Source: a virus
Length of the DNA: 64,000 bases
Virus record (IMG/VR): IMGVR_UViG_3300034101_003866
Coordinates: 1 to 64,000 of that record
Direction: 5' to 3' (one strand)
How positions within the stretch are numbered: position 1 is the stretch's first letter; each line of letters begins with the position of its first letter. Below the pieces are notes generated by a model. It was given only the letters and a program-made list of their open reading frames with translations, had not been told where the DNA came from and ran no database searches. Below are positions 79-61,427 of this stretch, one piece after another. A program made the position numbers and the translations under genes.

Positions 79-1275
79 ATGTTTAAGATGGAACTTGGTT
101 TTAATCCGTATGACAAGGCTAACAGCAATACTGGAAAGCGTCATGTTAATTCGTGGAGTAGACTACAGCAGCAGTTTCTAGATTCTTTTAATCTAAATGC
201 TGGTCATATCTTTTGCTACAATGGAGATCCTCGTAGAAAGATTAGTAGTATGAAGCATACTAGTGATCTAAACGAGGTACATGATGCTAATGAGAATAGC
301 AACTCTGATGCTTACTTCTACGTTAACGGTGGGCGAAAGCAGTATGCTATTAATACTATTGCTTGTTGCTTTGTTGATATTGATGCTGGTCGAGACTCTG
401 ACGGAAACTATCTGCCCTCAAAAGAGGTTATGAAGTTTAAGCAGTCCTCTCTTGATAAGATCAATAATTTTCCTGTTAAGCCAAGTTGGGTAGTAGATAC
501 TCGTAACGGTTATCAGATTTATTGGATTATGGATGATCAAAGTCGAACTCTGATTAATCAAACCACATGGAATGGTATTCAGAAGAAACTGGTAAATTAC
601 TTTGGTGGAGATGCACGAGCCATAAAGATCAATCAGATTTATCGAGTTCCTTATACTTGGTGGCGTAAGTGCTGGGAAAAGAAGGCGTCTTACTTTACCA
701 GTATTCTAAATGGCTCAACTGGTCAGAGCGTTAATGTTCAAGATTTAATCTCTGCATTAAATGGTCAACCAGCAACAGTAACTATTGTTCCTAACGCTAC
801 TAGTGATGCTTGGTTTGAACAGTGGAGAAAAACCTATAAGAAGTCTGACGCTAATGGGCTTCCTGTGACGGTTGATGCTGCTGCAAAGATTCTGAACGAA
901 CTTAATAGTCAGAGGGCGACCTATACAAATAGCAGTGCTGATTATTGTGGTCAAAAGAATAGTGTTAGTACCACAGATCAGTGGAAGGCAACTTGGGCGT
1001 CTTATGATCAGACTCCAAATAGTTACAATGAGGATCTTTCAAAGGCTTACAACAGCAAGTTTGAAAAGGCTTATGGTGATCCGTCGCCAGTATTGCCTTC
1101 TCATGCTGGTGACAGTGGTTTAGTTTTGAGTGGGGAGCAGGCCAAACTTTTAAAAACGGTGGTCGAGTACCTCAACCAAGCGTCTACAGCGTTGTATTTC
1201 AGTAACAACCGATTCCTTTCTGGTGCTGCCAGAGACTTGGCAAGCCAGATTAGTGATAAGTTTTGCGTAGGTTAA
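79..1275 (+). CDS. RepB'-like DNA primase (archaeo-eukaryotic primase superfamily) with a long C-terminal extension
   Basis: AEP-type motifs FVDID, VVDTRNGYQIYW and D...INQIYRVP in the N-terminal ~200 aa; C-terminal half not recognised. Confidence 0.65.
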   Translation: MFKMELGFNPYDKANSNTGKRHVNSWSRLQQQFLDSFNLNAGHIFCYNGDPRRKISSMKHTSDLNEVHDANENSNSDAYFYVNGGRKQYAINTIACCFVDIDAGRDSDGNYLPSKEVMKFKQSSLDKINNFPVKPSWVVDTRNGYQIYWIMDDQSRTLINQTTWNGIQKKLVNYFGGDARAIKINQIYRVPYTWWRKCWEKKASYFTSILNGSTGQSVNVQDLISALNGQPATVTIVPNATSDAWFEQWRKTYKKSDANGLPVTVDAAAKILNELNSQRATYTNSSADYCGQKNSVSTTDQWKATWASYDQTPNSYNEDLSKAYNSKFEKAYGDPSPVLPSHAGDSGLVLSGEQAKLLKTVVEYLNQASTALYFSNNRFLSGAARDLASQISDKFCVG

Positions 1276-1281
1276 TTAAAG

Positions 1282-1326
1282 CCGGATCAGTCGGGGGATG
1301 CTTTTGTGTCCCCCGATTGTGTCTGG
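1282..1326 (+). other. GC-rich intergenic RNA stem-loop without a U-tract
   Basis: ccggat-cagtcgggggatgc-tttt-gtgtcccccgattg-t-gtctgg; several G-U pairs; AGGAGG RBS follows. Confidence 0.75.
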
Positions 1327-1343
1327 ACTAGGAGGAATAAATT

Positions 1344-1613
1344 ATGGGAAGACACACAAATAAACTATTACAGCATTTACTAGATAATGAATCTTCTAGA
1401 AAATATTTTATCGAATTAGTTCAAAAAACCAGTAACAATCGGGAAGTGGCTAAATTTCTGGAAGAAGGTTTTGAGAACACAAAATGGTATGTTAGTGGTC
1501 AAACAGTTAATAATATTATGAAACGATTAGGATATGAAGGTAAGCGTGGACGTAAACCAACTCGACCTCATGTAATTGATAATACTGGGCCAAGATGGTC
1601 TGAAAGAGTTTAG
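1344..1613 (+). CDS. small HTH-like DNA-binding protein
   Basis: AGGAGG RBS; NREVAKFL...VSGQTVNNIMKRLGY helix-turn-helix pattern plus basic KRGRKP. Confidence 0.55.
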   Translation: MGRHTNKLLQHLLDNESSRKYFIELVQKTSNNREVAKFLEEGFENTKWYVSGQTVNNIMKRLGYEGKRGRKPTRPHVIDNTGPRWSERV

Positions 1614-1620
1614 TTAAATT

Positions 1621-2034
1621 ATGAATAGTCAAGAATATCCAGAAGATAAAGATCCTTACAAATTCTACTTTCAGATAGATACTGAATGGGTCAAGAAATA
1701 TATGGATAGTCTGCTCAATAAGATAGAATATAAATGGATAACTAAGGAAGTTATAGAGGATGCGTTGAAGAATCTACCTAACTATAATACTCCTTTACTT
1801 CCAGATGGATTTTCTCCGATTTCGTTACCTGTGAATAGTTCGTTCTCCAGTACAGCGGATGATAAAAAGTCCCTGTACTTGGGGAACAACTATTGGAACG
1901 AAGGAATATGGAAAATAAAATACTTTGTCTACAACAAATTACAGAAAGAATATGAATTACATTTACAAAGTCATGCTAGGCATATTGTTAGCCAGCCTAG
2001 ATACTATGAAGGATTATTTGAAATACTTAATTAG
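1621..2034 (+). CDS. hypothetical protein
   Basis: 137-aa ORF in operon order. Confidence 0.6.
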   Translation: MNSQEYPEDKDPYKFYFQIDTEWVKKYMDSLLNKIEYKWITKEVIEDALKNLPNYNTPLLPDGFSPISLPVNSSFSSTADDKKSLYLGNNYWNEGIWKIKYFVYNKLQKEYELHLQSHARHIVSQPRYYEGLFEILN

Positions 2035-2042
2035 GAAGATTT

Positions 2043-2477
2043 ATGAAAGATAACTGGTATGTAATTCACGACATGGATGCGTTTACTAACCACGCCAGAG
2101 TATTAGTTTATAATGCTTTTGGTAGTGGTTTATCGGAAGATAAAGATGATCCAGAAATTGATGATCTAATATCTGTTAAACCAGAAGATAAGGATGAGTT
2201 AGATAAAATATTATCTTTTGAAGAATCTTTGAATATCACAACCCAAATCGTTAAAAAACAGAAAAACAAAAAGACAAATAGTATACGATATGTTGTAAAC
2301 GATATTATATTTTCAGAAGTATTAGAGTCTTTGAACGACAGAATGGTGAGTAATCTGTTGAATAACTTGGTAAATAAGGGAGTTCTTGAAACGGGATTTG
2401 ATAATGAGACTAATGATTTCCTATTTTGGATAAAAGAAAATGATAAAAACAAATCTGAAAAGCCAGAAACCGATTGA
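2043..2477 (+). CDS. hypothetical protein (possible winged-helix C-terminus)
   Basis: AGGA RBS; LNNLVNKGVLE...FLFW resembles a wHTH end. Confidence 0.65.
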   Translation: MKDNWYVIHDMDAFTNHARVLVYNAFGSGLSEDKDDPEIDDLISVKPEDKDELDKILSFEESLNITTQIVKKQKNKKTNSIRYVVNDIIFSEVLESLNDRMVSNLLNNLVNKGVLETGFDNETNDFLFWIKENDKNKSEKPETD

Positions 2478-2850
2478 GACTGATGCCTCTTTTAAATATC
2501 AGTGTCCTTCAGAAGATTGTGATAATGAACATTGGCTATTTATAAGACAGGCTCAGATTAAAAACTTTAAGATAGTCTGTGAGTGTGGTTTGGTTTTCAA
2601 GCCAAAACAGATAAAACATATTAAAATAATTTACGAAAAGCCCAAAAGGAAACGAAAGACCGCAGAAGATATTGTTGATAGTATTCCTGTTGACCTTTTG
2701 AATCAATGTGCTAAAGTTTTGTCTGGCTATGGATTTGATTTGGACGAGTCTAAAGAATTAATTAAGCAATCATATAATTCTTGCAAGACTAATGATATTG
2801 GATCTTTAATTAAAAACGCTTTAAAATCTTTTGGAGAAAAAAATGGCTAA
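2440..2850 (+). CDS. Zn-ribbon protein with RuvA C-terminal (domain III)-like tail
   Basis: CPSEDC/CECG cysteines; C-terminal AKVLSGYGFDLDESKELI...DIGSLIKNALKSF matches the RuvA domain III pattern; overlaps the start of ruvB. Confidence 0.7.
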   Translation: MIKTNLKSQKPIETDASFKYQCPSEDCDNEHWLFIRQAQIKNFKIVCECGLVFKPKQIKHIKIIYEKPKRKRKTAEDIVDSIPVDLLNQCAKVLSGYGFDLDESKELIKQSYNSCKTNDIGSLIKNALKSFGEKNG

Positions 2851-3754
2851 AGGTATTCGACCATCAACTTTTGACGAGATCATTGGACAGGATAATGTTA
2901 AGGAGCGTCTGCGAGTGTCTGTGAGGGGTTGTAAAAACACAGGCACGGTGATGCCTCACGTTTTAATAGACGGCCCTCCTGGCCTTGGAAAGACCACCAT
3001 AGCGAGTGCCATAGCAAACGAGTTGGGGGTGAACCTTTATACCACCAATGCTGCAAATATACGCAGTATAAAAAACATTATTCCATATATCATGGGTATT
3101 GAGCCAAGATCAGTTTTGTTCATTGACGAAATTCATAGATTACCTAAAATTGTAGAAGAATTTCTATATCCAATCATGGAAGATTTTGTGCTCAATATTA
3201 CTGTTAAAAATGATGACGATAAGGATGTGCCAGAAACTATTGATCTACCAATGTTTACTGTTGTTGGTGCTACAACCAGCGGCGGAAGTTTAAGTCAACC
3301 ATTTTATGATCGATTTTGTATTAAAGAGCATCTATCTTTTTACAACACAGATGATCTAGCTAAACTAGCAAGGTCGAATTCGTCTAAACTAGGAATAGTC
3401 ATAGATGATTCAGACCTCTTAGAGATTGCACGACGAAGCAAAGGTACTCCAAGAATTCTAAATGCTAGATTGCAATGGTATAAAAATTATATATCTTGTA
3501 ATCCAGATAAAACTATTTCTGTGGATGAGATATTTAATGTTCAGGGTATTGATAATAATGGTCTTGATGTTTATGATAGACTATATATTGATATTTTGAA
3601 AAAGAGTAAGGGATCACCACTTGGATTGAAAGCAATATCTTCAATGACAGGAATTGCTATTGAAACTATTGAAAATAGTATTGAGCCATTTCTAGTTCGA
3701 CGAGGATATGTGATCAGAACTCAGAAGGGAAGAGTTTTAGGATCTCAACCATGA
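2843..3754 (+). CDS. ruvB: Holliday junction branch migration AAA+ ATPase RuvB
   Basis: RPSTFDEIIGQ, Walker A GPPGLGKTT, Walker B LFIDEIHRL, VGATT, DRF, GTPR, IEPFL...RTQKGR; ATG at 2843 follows a GGAG RBS. Confidence 0.95.
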   Translation: MAKGIRPSTFDEIIGQDNVKERLRVSVRGCKNTGTVMPHVLIDGPPGLGKTTIASAIANELGVNLYTTNAANIRSIKNIIPYIMGIEPRSVLFIDEIHRLPKIVEEFLYPIMEDFVLNITVKNDDDKDVPETIDLPMFTVVGATTSGGSLSQPFYDRFCIKEHLSFYNTDDLAKLARSNSSKLGIVIDDSDLLEIARRSKGTPRILNARLQWYKNYISCNPDKTISVDEIFNVQGIDNNGLDVYDRLYIDILKKSKGSPLGLKAISSMTGIAIETIENSIEPFLVRRGYVIRTQKGRVLGSQP

Positions 3755-3791
3755 TAATTTGATATCAATAAATATATAATGTTAAGATACT

Positions 3792-3818
3792 AAAGGGGCC
3801 TTTTTGGCCCCTTTTTTA
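3792..3818 (+). terminator. Rho-independent terminator (possibly bidirectional)
   Basis: aaaggggcc-ttttt-ggcccc-tttttt just after ruvB. Confidence 0.85.
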
Positions 3819-3828
3819 TTGGTATGGT

Positions 3829-3840
3829 GGTGTAATCTAC
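3829..3840 (+). promoter_or_regulatory. GGTGTA motif, putative phage (late) promoter
   Basis: GGTGTA 25 nt upstream of ATG 3854, right after a terminator; motif recurs before many genes. Confidence 0.55.
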
Positions 3841-3853
3841 CTTAGAGGAATCT

Positions 3854-4165
3854 ATGATAGATACTATATACATATTATTGATTATATTAATACTATTAAA
3901 TATAGTATTTTTCTTTTTGGGATACTCTATTGGTCGATTAAATAGTAGTCAGGCCATTGTTGAGAGTCAGCCAATTTCATTTTTTAATAAAAGCAAATCA
4001 GATAATGATAAAATGATTAACAAAATTACTATTGACGAGAGCAAGTATGTAACAGATATTAAGACATCTGGCATGGAGAAAAAATACGAGAATCTTGGTG
4101 AGACAAAAGTATCTGAAGAAAACATAGAATCTTCAATTAATAAACTTAAGAATATAAAGAGGTAA
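3854..4165 (+). CDS. single-pass membrane protein upstream of actin
   Basis: N-terminal hydrophobic IYILLIILILLNIVFFFLGY followed by a charged cytoplasmic-type tail; GAGGA RBS. Confidence 0.8.
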   Translation: MIDTIYILLIILILLNIVFFFLGYSIGRLNSSQAIVESQPISFFNKSKSDNDKMINKITIDESKYVTDIKTSGMEKKYENLGETKVSEENIESSINKLKNIKR

Positions 4166-4170
4166 TACTT

Positions 4171-5172
4171 ATGGGAAAAGGTTTAGATGTTGGAACTAGT
4201 TATATTGTATTATCTCAAGACTCTGCTAATGGAGTAGTCTATAAGGATTTTAGGGATGCTTTTTATATTATCAAACCAACCACACCAGTTGCAACAAAAA
4301 TGATTGAAAAGGGATTAGCTGGTAAGGTTTTTGTTAAGGATGCTGATGGGTCGTTTTTAATTTTAGGCAAGGATGCTATTGAAAAGGCTATTGAGCGTAA
4401 TGACAACGCAAAGAGGCCAATGAGTAAAGGGGTTGTATCGGCCAAGGAGAAAGATGCAAAGCGTGTGCTGGCTTTTATTTTAAAAGAAGTGGCTGGCAAG
4501 GCATCAGAACAAAATGAAAAACTAGTATTCTGCGTACCCGCTCAACCAGTTGATCAAGAAGATGAAGATTTTGACGTTGGATACCATGAAGATGTAGTCA
4601 AGGCTATTTTGGGTGAATGTGGATATGATGCTAAGGCTATTAATGAGGCGGAAGCTTTGTGCTATGCAGAATTAGGCGACGAAGATTATACTGGGATAGC
4701 AGTATCTTGTGGAGCAGGAATGACTAATGTTTGCGTTATGCTTAATGGGGAGCCCACCGTGGTATTTAGTACAACTAAATCTGGAGACTGGGTTGATAGA
4801 ATGAGTGCCGTGGCAACTGGTGAAAAGGATAGTGTTGTTCAAGCAGAAAAAGAAGGTGGTGGATTTGTTATTGGCGAGCATAATGAAAATCCAGTTTTAT
4901 CAGCAGTATCTTCGTACTATGAAAGACTTATTGATTATACTACAAAACAATTAACATTAGCATTATCTGATCATAAATCTTTACCTAAATTTAAAAATCC
5001 ATTAACAGTTGTTGTTGCTGGTGGAACTTCTCAAGCGAAAGGCTATATTGAAAATTTTACTACAAAATTATCAGAAAATGGTTTTCCTTTACAGGTAAAG
5101 GTAGTCAAGCACGCTTCAGACCCCTTACATGCGGTTTCTAAAGGTTGTTTAATAGCAGCAAAGGTATTATAA
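4171..5172 (+). CDS. actin-fold ATPase (MreB/MamK superfamily, volactin-like)
   Basis: phosphate-1 GLDVGTS, CVPA, INEAEA, phosphate-2 SCGAGMTNV, GDWVD, adenosine VVAGGTS, DPLHAVSKGCL. Confidence 0.9.
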   Translation: MGKGLDVGTSYIVLSQDSANGVVYKDFRDAFYIIKPTTPVATKMIEKGLAGKVFVKDADGSFLILGKDAIEKAIERNDNAKRPMSKGVVSAKEKDAKRVLAFILKEVAGKASEQNEKLVFCVPAQPVDQEDEDFDVGYHEDVVKAILGECGYDAKAINEAEALCYAELGDEDYTGIAVSCGAGMTNVCVMLNGEPTVVFSTTKSGDWVDRMSAVATGEKDSVVQAEKEGGGFVIGEHNENPVLSAVSSYYERLIDYTTKQLTLALSDHKSLPKFKNPLTVVVAGGTSQAKGYIENFTTKLSENGFPLQVKVVKHASDPLHAVSKGCLIAAKVL

Positions 5173-5176
5173 AATT

Positions 5177-5794
5177 ATGTCAGACAATAATCCAAAATTA
5201 ATATCAGACTGTGGTGATTGTAGCGGGCCAGCGAGTCCAACACCAACACGAACATCAACAGCAACTCCACGACCATCATCTACTGTAACAAAAACACCAC
5301 CAGCCACAAGAACTGGTACGCCAGTTAAAACTGCAACACCTACACTTAGCGTAACAAAATCACCAAATCCAACAACAACTCCACAACCAACAATAACTAA
5401 AACTCCTGCAAATACTAAAACTCCAGCCCCAACAAAAACTATTACTGCTACTCCAACTATTACTTTAACAGTAAGTCAGACCGTAAGCAAAACACCAGCA
5501 GCAAGTAAGAGTCCAACTCCAACAAAAACATCAACAAGAACACCAACAATTACTAAAACTGTAACACCAACAGTAACAAAGTCATTATCTGCAACTCCAA
5601 CAGTATCACCAACTCGCACGATAACTGCTACTCCAACAATATCTTTGACTAGAACAGCAACGCCAACTATTACTCCGTCAAAAACTCCATCTCCAAGTTT
5701 AACGCCAAGTATAACACCATCTATATCCGAACCTCCTCAACCAACTCCAAGTTCCAGTTATCCAGCAATTGGAACTATTCTTTATATACCATAA
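5177..5794 (+). CDS. Thr/Pro-rich mucin-like protein
   Basis: almost entirely TPT/xTxT repeats; no signal peptide. Confidence 0.8.
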   Translation: MSDNNPKLISDCGDCSGPASPTPTRTSTATPRPSSTVTKTPPATRTGTPVKTATPTLSVTKSPNPTTTPQPTITKTPANTKTPAPTKTITATPTITLTVSQTVSKTPAASKSPTPTKTSTRTPTITKTVTPTVTKSLSATPTVSPTRTITATPTISLTRTATPTITPSKTPSPSLTPSITPSISEPPQPTPSSSYPAIGTILYIP

Positions 5795-5800
5795 TAAATT

Positions 5801-8800
5801 ATGAGCAATTTTAGTCTTATAGTCGCAGGAAACCAACATATAACATTAGGATGGAATAATCCTGGAAATTTGCAGGCAAGAGAGTCTAGGTACAGAGTAC
5901 AGTATCGAGTGAAAACCAGCGTTACTGCAACATTTAGCGCAAATTGGGTAGACCATGGAACATTATATATAGCTAATACTCCACCATCTAATATTTTATA
6001 TACTGTTAATGGATTAATTAATGGATATTATTATCAATTTAGAGTAGTTGCAGTTAATAACACTAATAATGTTGAAAGAGAGATTTTTACAACAGTAAAT
6101 AACTCTATAGCTGATTGGACACCGTATGATTCTGCTGATGGCGGTGGTCAGGCTGTAAGAAATCTTAATCTATCGTATGTTGGTCAAAGACCTAAATTAA
6201 TATGGACAACTCCAAGCGTCTTAAGAGGAGCACAAGGAGAGTTTGGTAGTATTGGAGGACCAGATAACAGTTATGTTATACAGTATAAACTATCATCACC
6301 TAGTGTATCATGGCCAAAGGATACATCAGGATTGAATCGCCAAGGTTATAAAATAATCGATGCGGTGGTTGATATCGGAATAAACTCTTATTTATTTCCT
6401 GTTGGAGCATTAGTATCTGGTCAAACTTATGATATTAGAGTGAGTAGTCTTAGAACACAACAATATGTTGATAATCCACTGCTAGATAAAAATTTATCAT
6501 ATTTTACAACAAATGATCCTACTGTCGAGCCTCAGGAATTCGCAAATTCTGGTGCGGTAACAATACCGATCACTCGTATTCAGAGACCAATTTGGTCAAA
6601 AGTATTAACCGTAGTGGCAGTAGCACCAACCACTCCAACTCCAACACAAACTCAAAGTTTAACTCCTACAAAGACTAGAATCCCACAGGTTAGTCAAACA
6701 AGAACACCAACAAAAAGTTTAACGCCTACACGAACACCAACAAAACCGCCACTACAAATAACAGCTACTCCAACTTCAAGCAAACCATCTATTCAAACAA
6801 CAGCAACTCCTACTAATACAAAAGTTAATGTTGTGACTCAGACTCCAATAAACCAAACCAGTAATAAAATACTATTTTTACCAGCAAGTATTGGCAAAGA
6901 TAAAACTTGGAATTCAATTGGTCAAAATCTAGAAAAAATAACTTATACTAATGGTAATACTATTATTGGAGTATATAATGGAAAAATATACAAGTCTTTA
7001 GATAATGGATCCACATGGAATTCTTATACTATAAATAGTTCCAATTCTAATAAAGTAGAAAATACATTTACATTTACAGATTATCAAGCTTTATTGGGTA
7101 ATGTTTTAAGATTATCATCTGTTCCTCCTTTTTCATCACTAGACAGATATGCCGATGGAATGTCAGTGAGCGAATTCGATAATCAAGGAGTATTAATTCC
7201 ATATGTATATGATATGGATTTTTCAGATGATGGTCAAATAGTATATGCTATTGCTAGAACAATAATTTATCCAGAATCTACAAAAACACAAAGTGCTATT
7301 CTAAGATTCTCTCCATCCTTTCCTACTAGTATTCTTTATAAAAGCACAGATGGAGGAACAACATGGAAAATACTATCTTTTGAAAAAGATTCTCGTATCA
7401 TACATGGAGCTTGTGTTTGTTCTGGTGATGGACAAAAATTAGCTTTAATGAGTGAAAAATATCTTTATTATTATTCAGATTCATGGGTGGTGTCTCAATT
7501 AGCTGTGTCTGATGATGGAGGTAATACTATGTCTATAGTATTCTCTGATAATGGTCAACAAATTTTAAGAAATATTTCCATAGCTAAAAATAGTAATAAA
7601 GTTCTTTTTGCTGCACTTGTCAATCCTGGAACTGCAAATACTATAACTTCAATTATGCTATATGATTTTGCAAAAAAGACTATTAATATATTAAGTGATA
7701 AGTTTAATAACCGATTTGGAAATTCTCCATTAGGAGCTAGAATACATGTTGAGTCTGAAATTATTAAATTTGGTAAAGAATCTCTTGGTATTGGAGTTAT
7801 TGATATATCTAATGATGGAAATACTATAGCATATATTCAAGACAATGCTGCTGGAGACAGGTATTTAGCTATCAGTACAAACGGGGGAGATTCATTTAAT
7901 TATATCGGACGTTATTTTGTTGGGAATCCATATAGAATAGCTATCAATAATAAAAAAATTATATATTATACAACAGTAATGTTTGATATAGAAGGAATAC
8001 AATCAGAAAATGGTGGAGAAACATGGTCAACAATTGGTAAAATTCCATTAACACCATATGGTACGGCTGGGCTTACTTCATTTATTAAACAATTACGTTT
8101 TATGGATAGTGGAAATAAATTAGTTATAACAGCTTTCAATAACACCGACAATACCGCACAAAGACCTTCAAAAAATTCTACTAGACCTGTTTTTATTAGT
8201 CAGGAAAGTCCATCAACAAATAATCCTCAAATAACGCCAACAAGATCATCGGCATCAACAATAACCAGAACTCCAACTAAAACCAGACCATCAGTAACTC
8301 CAACACCTCTTGGAAAAGCCGTAAGAAATATAGAAATAGTTGGAGGAAACGAGTGCGCTTATGTCACATGGGACGCTCCTGAACAAACAGTTAATCTAAT
8401 TGGATATAGAGTATATTATTTACAGTCTGTAAATAGTTTATCTATTGCAGCCAATGACCCTAGATGGATACCGGCAGCATTTGGATATACATTTCCTATT
8501 AATATGAGGAACACACTAGTAGCAAATCTAGCTAATTCTACAAAACTTTTTATCAAGATTGAAAGCGTATATTCTGATAATATTCATAGTATTGTAATGA
8601 ATAATATTGTTGATAGTCCACAATATAATAAATATACAGATAATTCTCCAAACATAAGTTTGACTCAATCAACACCAAGTTTATCAAATTTATCTTGGAG
8701 CAATCCTATTGATCAAACTATTGGTAATTTAATTTGCACTAGAGAATATTCAGTAATATTTTATAAAGATAATATTTTAGAATATCAATCTGAATATAAT

Positions 8801-11800
8801 ACTAATATTTTTTCAGCAGAAATAAAGGATAAGTTTGGAAATTATTCTTTTGAAGTTGCTACAAAATATGTTGATACTTCTAATGGTAATCAAATAATTG
8901 TTAAATCACAAAGATTATTTTCATATTTCAAGCCAGTAACTCCTACTCCAACAGTAACAGTTTCTCCAACTAAAACAATAACCCCAACACCAACAAACCT
9001 TAAGAATAATTTAAGACCACAAAATCCACGAGTAACGGTTGGAAATAAATGTGCGTATGTAACATGGACTCCTCCAACAAATAATCAATTTACAGAAAGT
9101 ATGGGTTTCCCTCCTTCTGGCGTAAATTTTGAACTCGTAGGATATGAAGCATACTATGTTAACAGTGCTGAGTCATCAATAGTTAATCCTAAAACAAATA
9201 GTAAATGGATACCAGCATTAGATGGAATATTATTGCCAACAAACAAAACAAATATAACAATAAATGATTTAAAATTAGTTAATAATAGTTATTCATGTAA
9301 AATATCTAGCGTTTATCGTAGAGTCGGATATGTTCCATTATCATCTGAATTAATTAATAGTTTTAGTGATCCATATATTAAAAAATACGATTCTCCAGAA
9401 GTACAATTTAACACTACTACATCGCCACAAGATGTTAGTAATAGTCCAAATGCCTTAATGGCTAAAGAATCATATCCTGGAGTAATAGATTTATCTTGGA
9501 ATCAACCAAATGATAGATCTCTTGCGGGATTTAATTTTACTGATCAGTACTTTATAAATATTAGGGGACCAATTAATGATTCTGGAGATATTTCTTGGAT
9601 AGAATACGAAAAACATATTGGCAATAGACCATACTACTCATATAAAACTCCATATAGCGGATCTTATAGTTTTGAAATTATGGCAAATTATAATGTTCCA
9701 ACTGTCAAAGATTATAATAGCGATGGAGAAATCGACGTATTGGATCAGATAGAATTACTAAGTAATGAAACACTATTAAAATATGGAGTATTATCTAAAC
9801 CAATTGAGGTCGATGCTGCTAAATATAATAATGACATTGATTATATAGTTATAACTTGTGAATTTGATAGTGGGGATTTAAATTTAAGATCCCGTATGAT
9901 TTCTCCGAATTTAGGTCAAAACTCAGCAGATGATTATTTAGGAACAGGAAAAAAATTCACTTGGTATCCTGATCAAGCAGGCGCCCCAATATTAAAATGG
10001 GTAGGAGATAAGGGCGGCGCCCCGTCATATGAGTCTATAATAATTGATTTGAAAAAATTTAAAATTAATAATCCCAATGATCAAATATTAAAGTTAGATA
10101 TTAGAGGTTATTGGGACGGAGATATTAATTCTACTCCAATTAAAATATATGCTGATACATATCAAGAAGGAGAACAAGATTCTTATGATTTGAAAAAATT
10201 TATTAATTATATATCTTATAATAGAATAAATGCGCCAGATAAAATAGTACTAAGCTCAAATAAGGATTCTGGAGAGAGAATAACTGTAGTTGACTATAAC
10301 TTATTAACAAAACAATTAACATTTAATAATAATGATTTTAGTAGTCCATTTATAGGAGTTACGCCGACTCCAACAGTTAGCATAACACAAACTCAAACAC
10401 GAACAACAACTCCAACAGTAACACCAACAAAGAAATTAATATCCTTTGCAGGATGTTCTTTAGATATTGATGCTGGTATTTTAGTTAATTCGTTACGAGG
10501 AAATCAAATATGTTTATTAATTAATTTACCAGATATAGCATGTCTAACTAATTCTAGATTTTCTAATTTAGAAATTAGTGCAATCGAGGTTGGATCTTTA
10601 TCTTATAATTCAAGGGCATCAGACAGAACTTCAACAAGTCTAGGAACCGCCACTGTTCCATTTACTGATATATTATCTGGCGGAGGAAGTTGGAACTCAA
10701 CATCTTTTGATAAAGCAAGAATTTGGTCAGAAGGATCTTCTTATGGATATAAAAATCCAATATCTAATAATGGATCAACTGACAGCACTATCTTATTTAT
10801 GAAAAATGATTGGATTATAGATACAAATAAAATTTATTATATACAAATTAGATTGTCTGATGATAGTGGATTTTATAGTCAATATTTTTATAGTAATTAT
10901 ATTGGAAACAAACTTAATATACCTGGTAATTTTACATATAATACAAGATCTGATATAAGATCGTCTGGATTTGGACAAAAGGTTGTTGATTTAGGAGAAC
11001 CAACTCCAACTCCTACAAGAACACCAACAATTACGCAAACGATGACGCCAAGTATAACTCCAACAGTAACACCAACGGAGAAATTGCTAGAGTTAGATCT
11101 TAATATGTGTCAACCATCATATATTGATGCTTGTACAGTTATTGTAGAAGATTTCCGACCAATAAAACGTTATTCAGTTTTGTATATTGGTAATACTTGT
11201 GGTGATGTGCTACCTTCTGGACTAGAATATTTCTTAGAACGTTATTTTGCTTTTGGGAGTTGGGTTAATGGTGGCTGGGTTGGGGTATGGATTCCAACAG
11301 ACGGAAGAATAGAGTTTGTCCCAGGTGATGTTACAAGATTTAGAGTTACTATTATAGATAAAGTTAATAACAAAAAATCAAGCAGTTTAGTCTCGAATAC
11401 TGTTGGATACTCTATCCCAATATGTGGACCTCCGCCAAGTCAAACTCCAACAAATACGAAAAACGCGCCAACACCAACAATAACACCAACAATAACAAAA
11501 ACACCAACAACAACACAAACAGTAACACCAACCTTAACAAAAACGCTCACAAGAACACCTACTATAACACCAACAATAACTCCTACAATAACAACAACAA
11601 TCACACCAACACCATCGACAACAGAAAATACTATTTTATGTAAGAGTTTTAACCCAGGTAATGCAAATTTATTTATTGATGCTGCAATATTAAGCAATTC
11701 CACCAGAGCAAATCAACCTTGCTTATTAATTAATGTGTCTAATATTAATTGTATTAAATATTATAATGAAATAAAAATTGAACCATTTATGTTTGGTGGA

Positions 11801-14800
11801 GGTTATCAGATTGTTAATGGGATGGTTAATGAAGAAAATCTAGATTATGTACCAGATATGGATCCTATAATTATTCCAATAAAAGACATTATATCAGGAA
11901 CTGGTATTTTTAATGCAACTCCCCTTGATAAAGCAAGGATTTGGACGGAAGGTTCGTCTTATGGATATGTCAATCCATTAAGTCAAACAAGTAACTTATG
12001 GAATGGAGATAGTAATACTACTAATCATACTATATTATTTATGTCTAGTAAATGGACAGCAAATACAAATATGACATATACATTTAAAGTTAATTTAGGG
12101 TCTAATAATAGAAATGTATATAGTAATTTTATGGGTCCATTAGCTACAGGGAATTTTAAATATGTTAATCGTAGTGATATGAAAGTATCAAATTTTGGAC
12201 CAAGACCAATGATTGTGGAATTAACTCCAACACCAACAGTTACTCAAACAAAATCATTAACACCAACACCAACTAAATCTCCAACACCAACAAAATCACT
12301 AACACCTACTATAACTCCAACGCCAACAAAATATGTAGTTAGTAACTTTAATTTATTTAAGAATGACCCATATGCTCCTCAAAATTTTACAATTAATAAA
12401 TATTTAGGATCTTATTTAGTGGAATTTAATGGATCTCTTAATAAAATAATACCATATACTACTCAAATTCAATATCTTAAATTAAATTCATATAGTTTAG
12501 TTATTTATGCGAGATATGGTTACTCTCCATCTTGGAATACATTAAAAGAATTTCTTATTAAACCAGAAGATGTGGTGGCAGGCGACAAGTCCGTATTCCC
12601 AATCACTTTTACCGATTTAGACATAGAAGACGAACCATATAATTTTAATTATAATATTTCTGAATTTGATAAACGAAATAGATTAATATATAGAATAGGA
12701 TTAATTGCTAATTATAGCGACTCGACAGCTTTCCCAAGAGGCATAGGGAAAATAGCAGAGAATGATGAGGGATTAAGTGTCGATGGTATTGTTAATAATA
12801 CTGGCGCTGGATATGTACCAGAGTTTTATAGATCTGCTGGATTTTATGAATTAGATCCTGCAGATATATCATTGAACGATAGTCAATTAATTAATCCATT
12901 AGCTCCTAAACTGTTATCTATAGATAATCAGGGAAAATTTTCTTTTGAAATACCACAAACTTCATTATGTAGACCTACAGTAAAATCTGTTTTTGAAATT
13001 GTGTCATTCAACTCTCCTACAATCAAAGAGAATTTACAAGCATATCCTATGAGCTTATATTATACATTAACAGGGAATAATATTGGCACCTCAACATACT
13101 ACTATAAAGGTTCACGTTTACCAGCTGGAACTTATGCTGGAAGAATTAGGGTTTATTACTCTGATCGCTCAACCACTTTTGGAGCTAACGACTCAATTGT
13201 TTCAAATACTATATCTTTCACAGTTGATTCACAAACAGCTCCGATACCGACAAATACAAATGTAAATACTGGTTCTGATAGAACAATAAGAAATTTAAGT
13301 GTATTTGGAGGAAATAGTAGTATATATATAGGTTTTGATCAGCCAGTTAAAACTAAAGATGATGGATTATTAGGATATAAAGTTTATTATAGTAGTGATA
13401 ATGGAGTAAGTTGGGTCTTCTCTGATCCAGATCCTTATGACAGGGGAATCTATGTTTCATATGGTATCGAAAATATTCCATATGAATATAGACCAATCGC
13501 TGGAATACTATACTCATTTACCGTGCCATCAAATGGAGATTACTTAGTAAAAGTGGTATCAGAATATTCTGGTATTGATGGATCAAGTTATATTAATCCA
13601 AAAACATATGAAGTAATTTCTAATAAAGTATCAACAATTTCTACTTTAGAAACTCCGTTTTCTCCAACTATTAATTATAGTTTTGAAAAATATAAAGATA
13701 GTCCGGCTATTCGTTTTAATATAGTTGATAATGATAATTCTGCAACCTACGCCATAGTGTTAGACACATTAGCTCTTGGTGATCAAATAATTGATGCTAC
13801 TACTAATGAAATAAAATATGTTATTAATTCTTTTATTGGATTTAATAATGTATCTGATGCAACCAAACAATTAATATTTTCTGATCGTGAATTTATTAAA
13901 CCGGGAAGAACATATTATTTAAAGTTAACTAATAATAGTAATTATAAATTAAGTATTTTAAAGAGACAAAAAGTATGGACAACTGCTTCTACAACATATC
14001 CTTATAATGTTTATGTTGATAGTTTAAGCAAGGAATACGTCATAGGGAATAATTTAGCTACTGCAACTCCAACACCAACATCCACAAGATTACCACAACC
14101 ATCTCCAACTCCAACAAGAACTCCGGTTCCATTAACACCTGTTGAAAGAGCCTCATCGTCAGATTCTCCAACATTTGATATGGAATTAGAAACTAATCCA
14201 GTTACAGGAGATTATGATATAGTTATAAAAATTATTCCATTACAAAATAATCGTAATAACTTTAAATACGTTTCCAATTCAAGTTCTGTACAAAGTTTTG
14301 CTTCGGCCACGGCCAGTTTGCCAAAAACATCTCAGGATAATTGTGGAACATCAACTTATTCATATAGTGTTGGTGATAATATTGGTTATCCAAATATAGA
14401 TCGAGGGTTGGATCTTGCTCATATAATATTTTATAAAACATCTATTAATGGTAAAACAGCCATTGATTTAACGGATGCCAGTGGAACGAGGTCAGTATTT
14501 TATGGAGTAAGATATGGTGATGATAATTCATTGAGTCCAATATATAAAATAAAATTTACAAGATCTCAATTTTCCTTATTAACAAAAGAATTAGGAAATG
14601 GACAATATCAAATATATGCAGAAATTTCTCTTATATATAGAGGATCGCAAAGAAGATATATTGTTAGAAATACTAATTATCAGCAAACAAATACCACTGT
14701 TGGTTGTGCAAGTAGAGGGGGTGGGTTTTTTACAGATCCGACATTCACCATTTACACAGATGCGGCCTCGTCATTCCCATATAGAACAGTATATAGAACA

Positions 14801-15298
14801 TTACAAGTTCCATTCTCTCCGTCATATGGGCCTGATAAAATTTGGTTAAATAATGGAAAGTTCTATATTAGCGATAATATGTCAACTTATTTAAATCCAT
14901 TAGGAACAGTATTAAGAACTATATCTGCTAACGACAGTGATGGAACAGCATTGATAAGCGGATCAAAGGCCAATGTTCCATCTTGTGTTACCTGTTTTGG
15001 ATATGGAATTACAAACCCAACAACATTATCTGCTATTATGGATTTTAGCTGCTCTCTACAATTAAAATCAGTTTCATTTATATTATATAATAGTGATAAT
15101 TCTTTTACTTCTCCAAATATAGTTTTTGAAACATCAATAGATGGTATAACATGGACATCGGTAGCGGCAACAGTAACTCCGTTCTTCTACAGCCGAGAAA
15201 TAGGATTACCTGTTGATAGATCTTGTAGGTACTTTAGAATACGCACAACAGTATCAAGTCAAAAACTTGTTTTAGCAAAATTTGCACCAAAATTTTAA
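5801..15298 (+). CDS. giant multidomain surface/virion fibre-like protein (Fn3 repeats, BNR propeller, Thr/Pro linkers, C-terminal discoidin-like domain)
   Basis: Fn3 patterns (WNNP...YQFRVVAVN; AYVTWDAP...GYRVYY), Asp-box SxDGGxTW repeats, TPTPT linkers, FETSIDGITWT...RYFRIR. Confidence 0.8.
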   Translation: MSNFSLIVAGNQHITLGWNNPGNLQARESRYRVQYRVKTSVTATFSANWVDHGTLYIANTPPSNILYTVNGLINGYYYQFRVVAVNNTNNVEREIFTTVNNSIADWTPYDSADGGGQAVRNLNLSYVGQRPKLIWTTPSVLRGAQGEFGSIGGPDNSYVIQYKLSSPSVSWPKDTSGLNRQGYKIIDAVVDIGINSYLFPVGALVSGQTYDIRVSSLRTQQYVDNPLLDKNLSYFTTNDPTVEPQEFANSGAVTIPITRIQRPIWSKVLTVVAVAPTTPTPTQTQSLTPTKTRIPQVSQTRTPTKSLTPTRTPTKPPLQITATPTSSKPSIQTTATPTNTKVNVVTQTPINQTSNKILFLPASIGKDKTWNSIGQNLEKITYTNGNTIIGVYNGKIYKSLDNGSTWNSYTINSSNSNKVENTFTFTDYQALLGNVLRLSSVPPFSSLDRYADGMSVSEFDNQGVLIPYVYDMDFSDDGQIVYAIARTIIYPESTKTQSAILRFSPSFPTSILYKSTDGGTTWKILSFEKDSRIIHGACVCSGDGQKLALMSEKYLYYYSDSWVVSQLAVSDDGGNTMSIVFSDNGQQILRNISIAKNSNKVLFAALVNPGTANTITSIMLYDFAKKTINILSDKFNNRFGNSPLGARIHVESEIIKFGKESLGIGVIDISNDGNTIAYIQDNAAGDRYLAISTNGGDSFNYIGRYFVGNPYRIAINNKKIIYYTTVMFDIEGIQSENGGETWSTIGKIPLTPYGTAGLTSFIKQLRFMDSGNKLVITAFNNTDNTAQRPSKNSTRPVFISQESPSTNNPQITPTRSSASTITRTPTKTRPSVTPTPLGKAVRNIEIVGGNECAYVTWDAPEQTVNLIGYRVYYLQSVNSLSIAANDPRWIPAAFGYTFPINMRNTLVANLANSTKLFIKIESVYSDNIHSIVMNNIVDSPQYNKYTDNSPNISLTQSTPSLSNLSWSNPIDQTIGNLICTREYSVIFYKDNILEYQSEYNTNIFSAEIKDKFGNYSFEVATKYVDTSNGNQIIVKSQRLFSYFKPVTPTPTVTVSPTKTITPTPTNLKNNLRPQNPRVTVGNKCAYVTWTPPTNNQFTESMGFPPSGVNFELVGYEAYYVNSAESSIVNPKTNSKWIPALDGILLPTNKTNITINDLKLVNNSYSCKISSVYRRVGYVPLSSELINSFSDPYIKKYDSPEVQFNTTTSPQDVSNSPNALMAKESYPGVIDLSWNQPNDRSLAGFNFTDQYFINIRGPINDSGDISWIEYEKHIGNRPYYSYKTPYSGSYSFEIMANYNVPTVKDYNSDGEIDVLDQIELLSNETLLKYGVLSKPIEVDAAKYNNDIDYIVITCEFDSGDLNLRSRMISPNLGQNSADDYLGTGKKFTWYPDQAGAPILKWVGDKGGAPSYESIIIDLKKFKINNPNDQILKLDIRGYWDGDINSTPIKIYADTYQEGEQDSYDLKKFINYISYNRINAPDKIVLSSNKDSGERITVVDYNLLTKQLTFNNNDFSSPFIGVTPTPTVSITQTQTRTTTPTVTPTKKLISFAGCSLDIDAGILVNSLRGNQICLLINLPDIACLTNSRFSNLEISAIEVGSLSYNSRASDRTSTSLGTATVPFTDILSGGGSWNSTSFDKARIWSEGSSYGYKNPISNNGSTDSTILFMKNDWIIDTNKIYYIQIRLSDDSGFYSQYFYSNYIGNKLNIPGNFTYNTRSDIRSSGFGQKVVDLGEPTPTPTRTPTITQTMTPSITPTVTPTEKLLELDLNMCQPSYIDACTVIVEDFRPIKRYSVLYIGNTCGDVLPSGLEYFLERYFAFGSWVNGGWVGVWIPTDGRIEFVPGDVTRFRVTIIDKVNNKKSSSLVSNTVGYSIPICGPPPSQTPTNTKNAPTPTITPTITKTPTTTQTVTPTLTKTLTRTPTITPTITPTITTTITPTPSTTENTILCKSFNPGNANLFIDAAILSNSTRANQPCLLINVSNINCIKYYNEIKIEPFMFGGGYQIVNGMVNEENLDYVPDMDPIIIPIKDIISGTGIFNATPLDKARIWTEGSSYGYVNPLSQTSNLWNGDSNTTNHTILFMSSKWTANTNMTYTFKVNLGSNNRNVYSNFMGPLATGNFKYVNRSDMKVSNFGPRPMIVELTPTPTVTQTKSLTPTPTKSPTPTKSLTPTITPTPTKYVVSNFNLFKNDPYAPQNFTINKYLGSYLVEFNGSLNKIIPYTTQIQYLKLNSYSLVIYARYGYSPSWNTLKEFLIKPEDVVAGDKSVFPITFTDLDIEDEPYNFNYNISEFDKRNRLIYRIGLIANYSDSTAFPRGIGKIAENDEGLSVDGIVNNTGAGYVPEFYRSAGFYELDPADISLNDSQLINPLAPKLLSIDNQGKFSFEIPQTSLCRPTVKSVFEIVSFNSPTIKENLQAYPMSLYYTLTGNNIGTSTYYYKGSRLPAGTYAGRIRVYYSDRSTTFGANDSIVSNTISFTVDSQTAPIPTNTNVNTGSDRTIRNLSVFGGNSSIYIGFDQPVKTKDDGLLGYKVYYSSDNGVSWVFSDPDPYDRGIYVSYGIENIPYEYRPIAGILYSFTVPSNGDYLVKVVSEYSGIDGSSYINPKTYEVISNKVSTISTLETPFSPTINYSFEKYKDSPAIRFNIVDNDNSATYAIVLDTLALGDQIIDATTNEIKYVINSFIGFNNVSDATKQLIFSDREFIKPGRTYYLKLTNNSNYKLSILKRQKVWTTASTTYPYNVYVDSLSKEYVIGNNLATATPTPTSTRLPQPSPTPTRTPVPLTPVERASSSDSPTFDMELETNPVTGDYDIVIKIIPLQNNRNNFKYVSNSSSVQSFASATASLPKTSQDNCGTSTYSYSVGDNIGYPNIDRGLDLAHIIFYKTSINGKTAIDLTDASGTRSVFYGVRYGDDNSLSPIYKIKFTRSQFSLLTKELGNGQYQIYAEISLIYRGSQRRYIVRNTNYQQTNTTVGCASRGGGFFTDPTFTIYTDAASSFPYRTVYRTLQVPFSPSYGPDKIWLNNGKFYISDNMSTYLNPLGTVLRTISANDSDGTALISGSKANVPSCVTCFGYGITNPTTLSAIMDFSCSLQLKSVSFILYNSDNSFTSPNIVFETSIDGITWTSVAATVTPFFYSREIGLPVDRSCRYFRIRTTVSSQKLVLAKFAPKF
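11430..11620 (+). repeat. low-complexity coding repeat (ACACCAACAATA-type, TPTI units)
   Basis: tandem acaccaacaata/acaccaacaaca units; similar tracts near 6630, 8230, 8935, 10360, 11000, 12220, 14060, 15355 and 16360. Confidence 0.85.
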
Positions 15299-15310
15299 AG
15301 AAATAATATT

Positions 15311-18300
15311 ATGAGTAATAATCCTAAAATTGATATTGATAAAAATTGTGAAGTGACACGAACTCCAGAAAAGAGTCCAACTCCGACACGAACAACCACA
15401 CGAACTCCCAAGGTTACAAGAACAGTAACAAAATCATTAACACCTACTCCTTCAGTAACCAAGTCATCAACTCCAACACGAACAGTAACAAAAAGTCCAA
15501 CTCAAACAATAACTCCAACAAAAACTATTACTGGAACAGTAACAAATACTCCAACAAATACAGTTACAGCAACTGTAACAAAAACAGTAACACCAACAAT
15601 AAGTATCAGTCCAACAAAGACTATAACCCCAACTACAACAAAAACAGTAACGCCAACTCTAAGTCCTTCTAGTCCAAATCAGCCAGATTCAAATACAAAT
15701 ATAGCACTAGCAGGGTGGGATTATGTAAATGGAAGAGTAGCATCTTTTACAAATACTATGGGAGTAGAAGATTTATCTGATATTAATTATAGACAATTGG
15801 TTCTTAATACAATTAATTGGTTAGTAAAAAATAAATCAAATCCTAAAATACTAATTTTAAATCCTAATAACGATTTATACGAAAATGCTTTAGGTTCTGT
15901 TCTTGGTGCTATATCTAATAATATAACTTATACTAGTGAGAATTGGTCTAATTTTACTGGAATTTCTTTAAACAATACGTACGATATTATTTTACCATTA
16001 ATGAATTATAATTGGAGTATTGCAAATACTATGCCAATTGATGGACAGTTAGCTATTTCTAATTTTATCATAAATGGCGGATCAATGTTAACTTGTGAGT
16101 GGATGATGTGGAGAATAGCAATTGCTTCTGTAAATGTAAATAATATGAATACATTAGAACAGCTATTACCTTGTGTAGTATCAAGTCAGTATTCAAATAG
16201 AACAAAATTAAGATATCAATTATCATTTTATGATAGTATCATATCTAATAATATTCCATCAGATTTTATGTGGACCCCAACAGATATAGCGGGTGTAGAG
16301 ACTAATATTAGCATAGCAAAACCAGGAGCAAAGATTTTTTATAATAGCGTGCCAGCATTTACAACCTCGGCAACTCCTACTCCGACACCAACAATTACTC
16401 CAACTATCACCATCACAATCACTCCAAGTACAACACCTCCTAATATTGTAAATAATGGTGATGTTCCGCCAGGAAATAATAGTGCAAATTATAATAGTCA
16501 AGCATTTTGGGATGGCAAAGCTAATGTAACAACTGTGGGTTCAAATGGAGGACCAAGTGCATATGGTGCATTTGATATGATTGGAAATGTATATCAGTGG
16601 ACTGATTATGGTCTATCATCAAATGTTCGTGGGTTTGCTGGAGTATCTCATCATAATAATATTTTTTTTAATGGGAGAGATGGTGTAACCACGCCAAATA
16701 CAAAAACAAGTTTTACTGGTTTTCGTGTTGCAAGTTTGTCTAATCCATTTAATTTTTCTAATTTTGTAGATGTTAATGATAGACAAAATGCAGCAAGTAG
16801 TCTGGGTTTTGGTGCTGTTGCTTATGATTATAAAATTGGAAAATATCTTGTAACTAACTGTGAATATGTTGAGTTTTTAAATATTGTAGCAAGGACGGAT
16901 ATTAATAGCACTTATTATAATGAAGCTACAACTGGTATTGGTATTAACAGAAATGGAACTTCAGGAAGTTATACTTATACTGCTAAGACTAATTATGGAA
17001 ATAAACCGGTAGTTGGTGTTAGTTGGTTTGAATGTGCAAGATATTGTAATTGGTTGCACAATAATAAAGCCAATATTACAGAAACTGGCGCGTATACATT
17101 AAATGCAATGAATATAAATGCAGTAGTTAAGAATAATGATGCAAAATACCATATACCGCATCCTGATGAATGGTATAAAGCAGCGTATTATAAATCGGGC
17201 AGTCAGACTGCTGGTTATTGGGCTTACCCAACACAAAGTAACACATTGCCTTCTTCGGTTACAGCAGATTCTGCTGGAAATGGCCCTGTTACTTCATTGT
17301 ATACTTGTTTAGGAGTAACTCCTGTTAATACTTCAAATATTCCAATTAATCCTATAAGAACTTGTTTAGATAATTTTCAAGGATTGATATATGGAATAGA
17401 AGCAAACACAAGTATAATTGGATTAACTTCAGGAGCAAAATGGACAAATCTTTATACCTCTAGAAATAGTAGCTCAGAATTAGGCAGCATTACTAGAGGA
17501 GTGGCAACAACAAGCAATAATATCTCTTTTATCGAAGGAGAAATTGTATTTATAGATACGAGATCATCATTATTACTACCACAATTAAATATTACTGGTC
17601 ATTATCAAATACAATCAGCATCAAATGATTTGTTAAAAATACAGTGTTTAACACTTAATAAAAGAATAATGTCAAATCGAAATGATATGCCGGGATCTAG
17701 TGCTAACAGATCAAATATAACCTACGGAGCAGTATCGTCTGATAATACTAAGTTATATATTATAGGACAAGCTCTCAATTCGTTTACAGTATTAGATATT
17801 TTAACAAATAAAGTTATTAGAACTATTACTCTGCCATATGATAGTCCTACTAAAATAGTTGTGAGTTCACAATTTAAAAAAATATATATTGCTTGTCGAA
17901 ATAATATCGTAGCAATGGATGAGGATACATATAATATATACGGAGGATTAGAATTTCCATTAGGATTAGTATGTAGAGATATGGTAATAGATGAGTCAAC
18001 AACATCAACTGTAGATTTATATGTTATTGATGCCACAAAAGTATATAGAGTAGTAGATAGTCAGGGTTTTCTTTCCTTGTATAGAACCATAACTTTATCC
18101 AATGTGGGTGGAAGTTTTTATCAAATATTTATTATTGATTCTAAATATTATATAATAATTCAAGGAAATGCAACTACATCATATGTTGTTTTTGATATAG
18201 ATAATATGTCTAATACAGGACCAGATATATTAGTTAGTAACTATACAAGATTTAAATTCTCAGCATACGGATATGCAGTATATGATAAACTTAGTAAAAA

Positions 18301-18673: not shown

Positions 18674-19045
18674 ATGTTTAATTTTTATTCTAGCAGATCA
18701 TCGCAGTGGAACAATGTAAGAAAACAACATCTTAAAGAAAATAATAGTTGTTGTGCTTGTGGTAAAAAAGATAAACTAGAGGTTCATCATATTGAACCAT
18801 ATCATGTTAATCCAAATAGAGAATTAGATCCTTCAAATTTGACAACATTATGCAAGAGTTGCCATTTCACTATTGGTCATTTAATGGATTGGAATAGTTG
18901 GAATATTGATGTTATTAATGATAGTAGGGTGTATTTAAATAAGGTAAAGAATCGACCTTATCAAACAAGGATTCAGAGCAATGAAGACTATAGTTTATTT
19001 AATCGTTGCTTTTATTGGATACTCAATAAGTTTAGCGGGAACTAG
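18674..19045 (+). CDS. HNH endonuclease
   Basis: CCACG...LEVHHI...NLTTLCKSCH. Confidence 0.85.
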   Translation: MFNFYSSRSSQWNNVRKQHLKENNSCCACGKKDKLEVHHIEPYHVNPNRELDPSNLTTLCKSCHFTIGHLMDWNSWNIDVINDSRVYLNKVKNRPYQTRIQSNEDYSLFNRCFYWILNKFSGN

Positions 19046-24341: not shown

Positions 24342-24343
24342 AA

Positions 24344-27260: not shown

Positions 27261-27355
27261 AGTTAAGTATGTATTATAGTATATCCACCCGCTCTGCATA
27301 ATATATAATCATAAATCACCTCATGGTCAAGGCTAAAAAATCTTATCGTGAGCTG

Positions 27356-32499: not shown

Positions 32500-32503
32500 C
32501 ATT

Positions 32504-35578: not shown

Positions 35579-35580
35579 TC

Positions 35581-38131: not shown

Positions 38132-38132
38132 A

Positions 38133-61345: not shown

Positions 61346-61427
61346 GAACAATTTTACAACTTATACTTATAAAGGTGTATTATTATACAGTATTTTAATA
61401 CTCCTTATATAAGAAAAAGGGCACACA

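Follow-up and report, generated by a model that had tools for sequence, protein, structure and literature searches.

We analysed a window of 64,000 nucleotides (nt), positions 1-64,000 of the IMG/VR record IMGVR_UViG_3300034101_003866, in which a gene for a RuvB-type AAA+ motor is preceded by a small gene that lies where bacteria carry ruvA. The product of this small gene is here called mini-RuvA. In the textbook RuvAB system, RuvA recognises the junction and switches the RuvB motor via its domain III. The viral protein appears to combine an N-terminal zinc ribbon with a C-terminal domain related to this domain III. In public data RuvB is annotated as such, while its partner is only listed as 'hypothetical protein'. 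The two genes, their parts and the surrounding genes are given in Table 1; all coordinates are window positions.

Table 1. Features of the mini-RuvA/ruvB locus and of its neighbourhood.
Feature	Position	Strand	Basis or remark
mini-RuvA gene, 136 amino acids (aa), zinc ribbon plus RuvA-domain-III-like domain	2440..2850	+	open reading frame (ORF); overlaps o2043 and ruvB
Zinc-ribbon domain, residues 17-66, putative ligands C22, C27, C47, C49	2488..2637	+	Cys conservation; AlphaFold2, predicted local distance difference test (pLDDT) 90-96
Flexible linker, residues 67-83, KPKRKRK...	2638..2688	+	pLDDT <50 at residues 72-78
Three-helix C-terminal domain, residues 84-136, predicted RuvA_C homologue	2689..2847	+	profile, hhalign, Pfam, VIA-align, Foldseek
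ruvB, 303 aa from ATG (alternative TTG 2831); AAA+ large domain, lid, winged-helix head	2843..3754	+	Pfam, PDB matches
Pre-sensor-1 beta-hairpin, RuvB residues 118-136, NITVKNDDDKDVPETIDLP, acidic insert KNDDDKD	3194..3250	+	alignments
PrimPol-like protein	79-1275	+	weak RepB_primase and phrog DNA polymerase/primase matches
o1344, small ORF	1344-1613	+	
o1621, conserved small gene	1621-2034	+	relatives' N-terminus strongly acidic, Tyr/Asp-rich
o2043, conserved small gene, 144 aa, isoelectric point (pI) 4.6	2043-2477	+	weak winged-helix signals
Small membrane protein	3854-4165	+	
Actin-like protein	4171-5172	+	

The first-pass annotation of this DNA had described a 136-aa gene in the ruvA position that overlaps the start of ruvB, and this description holds. 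The end of the mini-RuvA gene and the start of ruvB share nucleotides (...GAA AAA AAT GGC TAA against ATG GCT AAA). The overlap is 8 nt if ruvB starts at the ATG at 2843, the start taken by the gene callers of public assemblies, and a start at the TTG at 2831 would make it 20 nt. The position directly upstream of ruvB is that of ruvA, which abuts ruvB in E. coli. Linkage of the two genes is strict: ruvB lies directly 3' of mini-RuvA in 78 of 80 viral loci, with gaps of -16 to +26 nt, and the other two loci end at the contig edge. Three more distant members that were fetched separately have the same arrangement. The protein family is large. A first search gave 41 clusters at 90% identity, and an exhaustive profile search (E<=1e-3) gave at least 442 clusters at 50% identity. 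Among the 150 matches listed of these 442 clusters, all are 80-184 aa long and share the same end-to-end architecture; longer fused forms were searched for and none was found, which is weak evidence. Conservation was measured over 140 representatives with 30-48% identity to the window protein. C22, C27, C47 and G98 are invariant, and at least 90% of the representatives keep P11, Y20, H31, W32, C49 and E103.

AlphaFold2, run with the family alignment, predicts a beta zinc ribbon (residues 17-52) and three helices (84-96, 101-114 and 120-134) at a mean pLDDT of 83. The N-terminal Cys ribbon claimed earlier is thus borne out. The cysteines form two knuckles (C22-x4-C27 and C47-x-C49) that sit on beta-hairpins, as is found in four-Cys zinc ribbons, they are conserved in the 140 representatives, and the domain modelled alone reaches a pLDDT of 88.6. 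Fold matches of the ribbon are generic and weak, with ZitP at Z 3.1, LysW at 2.7 and eS27 at 2.2-2.4, and with Foldseek E values of 0.86 or above. Its conserved residues (K10, Y20, W32, K41, F43, K44 and K56) are compatible with binding of nucleic acid or of protein and decide for neither. The ribbon is followed by the linker, whose basic stretch had been given as a feature of the protein. KPKRKRK is indeed present in the window protein, but the linkers of relatives vary from 7 to 35 aa in length and from -5 to +7 in net charge, so that the basic form is a trait of a sub-clade and not of the family. Also in agreement with the earlier description, mini-RuvA has neither of the junction-binding domains of RuvA. 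There is no RuvA_N match in Pfam at E<=10 and no oligonucleotide/oligosaccharide-binding (OB) barrel in the AlphaFold2 model. Likewise HHH_5, the helix-hairpin-helix (HhH) family, is unmatched and the model has no helices between residues 39 and 83; ribbon and three helices are all that is predicted.

The C-terminal domain is where the relation to RuvA becomes apparent. In a search of 177,635 PDB sequences, a profile built from 22 family members gave seven matches at E<=10, five of which are RuvA domain III (best 1ixs_A, E 0.01). With a profile of 140 sequences the top five were all RuvA domain III and 1ixs_A rose to E 3e-4. A RuvA signal that strengthens with a deeper profile is what true homology predicts. 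When the family was compared by hhalign with RuvA, represented by six sequences from bacterial DNA, the probability was 76% at first and then 85% (E 5.8e-6), and the alignment spans RuvA residues 146-199, which is domain III from end to end. When each of the 140 members was scanned against 24,736 Pfam families, RuvA_C was matched in 11 (best 3.2e-5) and every other family in one or two members, making RuvA_C the only recurrent helical match. In the ESM Atlas, RuvA_C is assigned to 50% of the members of a neighbouring cluster, which consists of viral proteins of 122 aa; we take this as a lead only. Structural comparison points in the same direction. Foldseek ranks RuvA first, with the proteins of M. 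tuberculosis, E. coli and T. thermophilus on top (2ztd_B with a root-mean-square deviation (rmsd) of 1.2 A over 47 columns; 1ixs_A with a template-modelling (TM) score of 0.74). The Foldseek E values are only 0.4-1.4 because the domain is small. VIA-align, searched against 48,161 representative chains, places RuvA domain III on ranks 1-3 with Z values of 7.3, 6.9 and 6.2 and rmsd of 1.6-2.0 A, and covers all 48 residues of chain 7pbp_G.

Residues that mark RuvA domain III recur in the viral domain. In the hhalign alignment, E. coli RuvA L167 pairs with mini-RuvA L94, a conserved hydrophobic position, L170 with Y97 (Y or L in the family), G171 with the invariant G98, Y172 with F99, E176 with E103, and L194-I195-R196 with L123-I124-K125. 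Two of the aligned positions have been probed in RuvA itself, where L167A and L170A abolished RuvB activation in vivo and left junction binding unimpaired (Nishino 1998, as cited in PMC2628435). The Z values by themselves are too low for a convincing fold assignment; the case rests on sequence searches, fold and gene position agreeing with each other. Taken together, the comparisons of sequences and models suggest that mini-RuvA's C-terminal domain is a homologue of RuvA domain III, albeit a remote one. The RuvA-domain-III-like tail of the first-pass annotation is thereby upheld at the family level, whereas the window sequence itself lies below Pfam detection.

The motor protein next to it looks genuine, whole and catalytically competent, as judged from its domains and motifs. 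Pfam finds RuvB_N (5.1e-49), AAA_lid_4 (2.5e-9) and RuvB_C (4.2e-17), and solved RuvB chains in the PDB match the phage protein over its full length with E values of 1e-69 to 1e-57. Walker A (44-52), Walker B (92-99), sensor 1 (142-145), the arginine finger YDRF (155-158), sensor 2 GTPRI (201-205) and the head hairpin RTQKGR (292-297, RT-x2-GR) are all in place and invariant across the aligned phage and bacterial sequences. In a structure of Pseudomonas RuvB the arginines of the head hairpin contact DNA (PMC10071043). The pre-sensor-1 hairpin is the part in which the phage proteins vary. An unusually acidic hairpin had been noted earlier for the window protein, and its DDD insert is present there, but it is not conserved in the pairing. 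The insert KNDDDKD occurs only in the sub-clade of the window and in the relatives L071, L072 and L077, and a DDD insert also in L014; it is again a sub-clade trait, and in most relatives the hairpin is about 4 residues shorter than that of E. coli RuvB. The charge of domain III differs between the groups, tending to neutral or basic (0 to +3) in the long-hairpin group and mostly acidic (-1 to -5) in the short-hairpin group. A matching of charges between hairpin and domain III is only hinted at, the sample being small and phylogenetically dependent.

The first-pass annotation had also allowed for a complete ruvA elsewhere being the real partner of RuvB. On the virus side no such gene was found, neither in the window, where a RuvA hidden Markov model run over six frames gave nothing significant (best E 0.19), nor in four near-complete relatives (95-100%) whose gene content was compared. 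In these four genomes RuvA_N is absent at E<=1, HHH_5 has one sub-threshold match, located elsewhere in one genome (G003), and neither RuvC nor RusA was detected. A DnaB-type helicase and a RecA-like recombinase are encoded in all four, and endonuclease VII in three. A branch-migration motor would thus have a recombinase and a resolvase to work with. We also considered RuvB as the replicative helicase of the phage, a role that is disfavoured by the DnaB-type helicase in all four relatives. RuvB together with mini-RuvA is therefore a candidate branch-migration component that would stand beside the phage's recombinase, its likely resolvase and its replicative helicase. A functional analogue exists in phage T4, whose recombination-dependent replication involves the branch-migration motor UvsW alongside a RecA-like recombinase and endonuclease VII. 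UvsW is a superfamily 2 (SF2) helicase and is unrelated to the AAA+ protein RuvB. Searches for Gp23 and UvsW-1 were silent, but so were their controls.

We consider it fairly probable that mini-RuvA is a minimal RuvA-like cofactor that docks on and regulates the phage RuvB through its domain III, with the zinc ribbon serving as a different tether. What goes further than homology, fold and linkage is inferred, and would run as follows. The two-gene unit may derive from a bacterial ruvA-ruvB operon in which RuvA lost its Holliday-junction-binding core, that is the OB domain I and the HhH domain II, and retained only domain III, which became joined to a four-Cys zinc ribbon via a flexible linker. 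Domain III would dock on a composite surface of RuvB made of helix alpha3 and the pre-sensor-1 hairpin. Cryo-electron microscopy of RuvAB has shown that domain III binds alpha3 and this hairpin and wedges neighbouring subunits apart, leading to ADP release, and that it is a nucleotide exchange factor and ATPase activator that stimulates hydrolysis at a distance (PMC9477746). The viral domain could likewise act as a nucleotide-exchange and ATPase-activating factor. The zinc ribbon might replace the tetrameric junction-binding core and tether the motor to DNA or to another phage protein, which is the weakest step of the scheme. Working with the RecA-like recombinase and endonuclease VII, the pair would then drive branch migration or fork remodelling in the phage's recombination-dependent replication. 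The first-pass annotation had proposed a similar scheme, an adaptor that retargets RuvB. Its ruvA position, the loss of domains I and II, the retention of domain III and the fusion to a ribbon are kept here, while the acidity of the hairpin and the basic linker drop out as supports.

Several observations weigh against mini-RuvA being such a cofactor. The window protein has no Pfam match at E<=10, hence no RuvA_C, and a genome scan of the four relatives likewise left RuvA_C unmatched at this threshold. Only 15-20% of the residues are identical to those of RuvA domain III. Three-helix bundles of the UBA-like kind are common, they appear among the lower-ranked rows of VIA-align and lower in the Foldseek list too, and Z values of at most 7.3 and Foldseek E values of 0.4-1.4 can reflect this common arrangement. 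The ribbon, with a net charge of +3 and a pI of 8.7, is only mildly basic, and none of its matches has a known DNA-binding role. On the RuvB side, the alignments indicate that the docking surface differs from the bacterial one, with the hairpin shortened in most relatives. In addition, a nearly invariant Glu occupies the position aligned with E. coli RuvB I148. We take I148 and I150 of E. coli RuvB to be RuvA contacts and I148 to be hydrophobic.

The modest fold scores and the silence of Pfam on the window sequence would be expected if mini-RuvA were an unrelated neighbour, a small zinc-ribbon regulator whose UBA-like bundle has converged on domain III and which is tied to RuvB only by the operon. 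However, when whole databases are searched by sequence, RuvA_C stands out and neither UBA nor any other helical family does, RuvA's G-x4-E signature and its hydrophobic positions are matched, and the gene sits exactly where ruvA does with universal linkage, so that we regard such a coincidence as very improbable. The host's own RuvA could also be the real junction-targeting partner of the phage RuvB, which would leave mini-RuvA as an accessory with another role. Complementation between RuvA and RuvB across species is known (PMC9477746), and the phage RuvB retains both the hairpin and the alpha3 region. The very changes in the hairpin speak against this, however, because compared with bacterial RuvB it is shortened or recharged and carries the Glu at the I148-equivalent position, and the phage keeps its own copy of domain III in every locus. 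A host RuvA as the working partner thus seems decidedly unlikely to us.

A different reading of the lone domain III is that it acts as a competitor or insulator. By occupying the RuvA-docking site it could bar host RuvA from the phage RuvB. Alternatively, it could bind the RuvB of the host and thereby block host RuvAB, or hijack it, in the course of infection. A domain III without junction-binding core is how a competitive binder would be expected to look. Moreover, mini-RuvA evolves much faster than RuvB (41-48% identity where RuvB has 68-80%, among the viral loci), a pattern typical of host-interaction proteins. For a simple plug, though, an invariant zinc ribbon with conserved aromatic and basic residues would be needless, and the gene, strictly linked to the phage's own ruvB and overlapping it, looks like that of a cognate partner produced alongside RuvB. 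We therefore hold a role as competitor to be rather unlikely. There is also a small chance, in our estimate, that phages use domain III as a portable 'RuvB handle' and have attached it to a new targeting module, with the motor no longer aimed at Holliday junctions. Its target might then be another substrate of the conserved block of PrimPol-like, winged-helix-like, mini-RuvA and RuvB proteins, such as origin DNA, replication forks that are stalled or nascent, or a complex of protein and DNA, a suggestion we hold with equally little confidence. Were it true, RuvB would have been re-purposed in nature for work outside the classical RuvABC pathway of recombination.

Returning to mini-RuvA as a cofactor of RuvB, comparison with known systems brings out what is shared and what is changed. 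Like RuvA of E. coli, T. thermophilus and M. tuberculosis, it is encoded immediately upstream of ruvB and ends in a three-helix domain with L-x2-[LY]-G-[YF]-x3-E that follows a flexible linker. In contrast to these proteins of about 200 aa, it has neither domain I (OB) nor domain II (HhH), so there is no evident tetramer core or four-way-junction cradle, and the place of these domains is taken by a four-Cys zinc ribbon. The closest match in sequence and fold is the isolated RuvA domain III fragment, seen in PDB 1IXS and on RuvB hexamers in 7PBL and related entries, nearly the whole of which is covered. These fragments indicate that domain III alone is a self-contained RuvB-binding module. They are, however, laboratory or modelled pieces of full-length RuvA, whereas in the phage the domain is naturally detached and fused. 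The phage RuvB is about 39% identical to E. coli RuvB and keeps the ATPase motifs, the lid, the winged-helix head and the DNA-contacting Arg hairpin. It differs in lacking about 17 N-terminal and about 13 C-terminal residues, in the altered hairpin (about 4 residues shorter in most relatives, with an acidic insert in the window) and in the Glu at the I148 position.

In a literature search we found no description of a zinc-ribbon/RuvA_C protein, of phage RuvB biology or of this phage RuvB clade. In the proteins described here the switch, domain III, appears separated from the junction-recognition core and placed on a zinc ribbon, and this combination is stable over hundreds of sequence clusters in large lake-water phages. 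Provided that RuvB is still driven by domain III, the two proteins would form a small system in which the effect of domain III alone on the motor could be seen, and they would reveal what minimal tether suffices for function. They would also show how branched DNA is handled in phages that have their own recombinase and resolvase, and would give a functional name to a large family of 'hypothetical proteins' that sits beside an annotated RuvB.

The gene upstream of mini-RuvA, o2043, overlaps it by 38 nt (2440-2477) in a +1 relationship in every locus checked, which is probably a dual-coding constraint. The two frames of the overlap encode look-alike peptides, KSEKPETD-stop and KSQKPIETD, that lie 7 nt apart. 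A programmed frameshift joining o2043 to mini-RuvA was considered and set aside, as the codons before the o2043 stop show no obvious slippery site. With 144 aa, o2043 has the size of RuvA domains I and II, and a diverged RuvA core was therefore considered as well; it was rejected because the hhalign probability is 0.1% and the protein is acidic. Among 19 members of its family, weak matches to HTH_56 were found in 5 (best 1.4e-4) and to Cdc6_C in 2. The weak winged-helix matches in its C-terminal half also include the APAF-1 WHD.

We read the window as part of an uncultivated large tailed phage of fresh water (lake water), because the contigs come from IMG/VR, the metagenomes from lakes, the genes are of phage type, relatives carry a T4 rIIB-like gene and GenBank phages give no match. 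The G+C content of the window is about 31%, and DNA nearly identical to it is found in lake-water metagenomes from many studies. The mini-RuvA protein is present on 150 viral contigs of IMG/VR, and four related records are 95-100% complete with lengths of 131-224 kb. Among GenBank phages there is no match to mini-RuvA or to the upstream PrimPol-like protein, and RuvB matches are below 42% identity. The GenBank 'phage' records H4, H7, H9 and H25 carry an UNVERIFIED_ORG flag or are assembly contigs. Several such records look like bacterial DNA because they contain an ordinary bacterial ruvA-ruvB with housekeeping neighbours. A scan of cellular genome contigs matched mini-RuvA only on a 1.1-kb contig of an alphaproteobacterial metagenome-assembled genome from Lake Lanier. 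This contig is too short to serve as a clue to the host and was dropped.

The locus belongs to a tightly packed run of genes, all on the + strand, that extends from 79 to 5172. The order PrimPol-like, o1344, o1621, o2043, mini-RuvA and RuvB is conserved across the clade in all long loci; in one distant member the PrimPol gene is missing from the module site. In the more distant relatives L105, L107 and L109 a T4 rIIB-like gene (Pfam Phage_T4_rIIB) lies just upstream of the PrimPol/RuvB module and is itself preceded by a gene for a protein of about 850-900 aa. On the 3' side of RuvB, the pair of membrane-protein and actin-like genes follows across the clade beyond a variable insert, and in some relatives HNH or dCMP-deaminase genes are inserted directly 3' of RuvB. 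The actin-like protein (4171-5172) matches Pfam Volactin over its full length (E 3e-63) and MreB with only 1e-5. Within the viral clade its identity stays at 76-95%, and the gene 5' of it always encodes a small protein whose N-terminus carries a membrane helix.

Further downstream, 5177-18661 (+) encodes what are presumably proteins of the surface or of fibres: one of 205 aa that is rich in Pro/Thr, one of 3165 aa with many Pro/Thr (PT)-rich linkers, and one of 1116 aa that contains an FGE-sulfatase-like domain. Adjacent genes for a trypsin-like and a subtilisin-like protease (Peptidase_S8, 2e-52) follow at 18981-20634 (+), and distant relatives have the same pair close to RuvB. Genes for sugars and modification form a large block at 21095-27299 (-) and 28670-40518 (+), with a carbamoyltransferase, an FkbM methyltransferase, a GlcNAc transferase, HtrL/YibB-like, radical SAM and IMPDH/GMP-reductase-like proteins and several GT1/GT4 glycosyltransferases. 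The window also encodes an Mtd_N tail-fibre domain and, at 59156-62159 (+), a divergent class II (B12-dependent) ribonucleotide reductase-like gene together with a PhoH-like gene (phrog_170, 7e-68).

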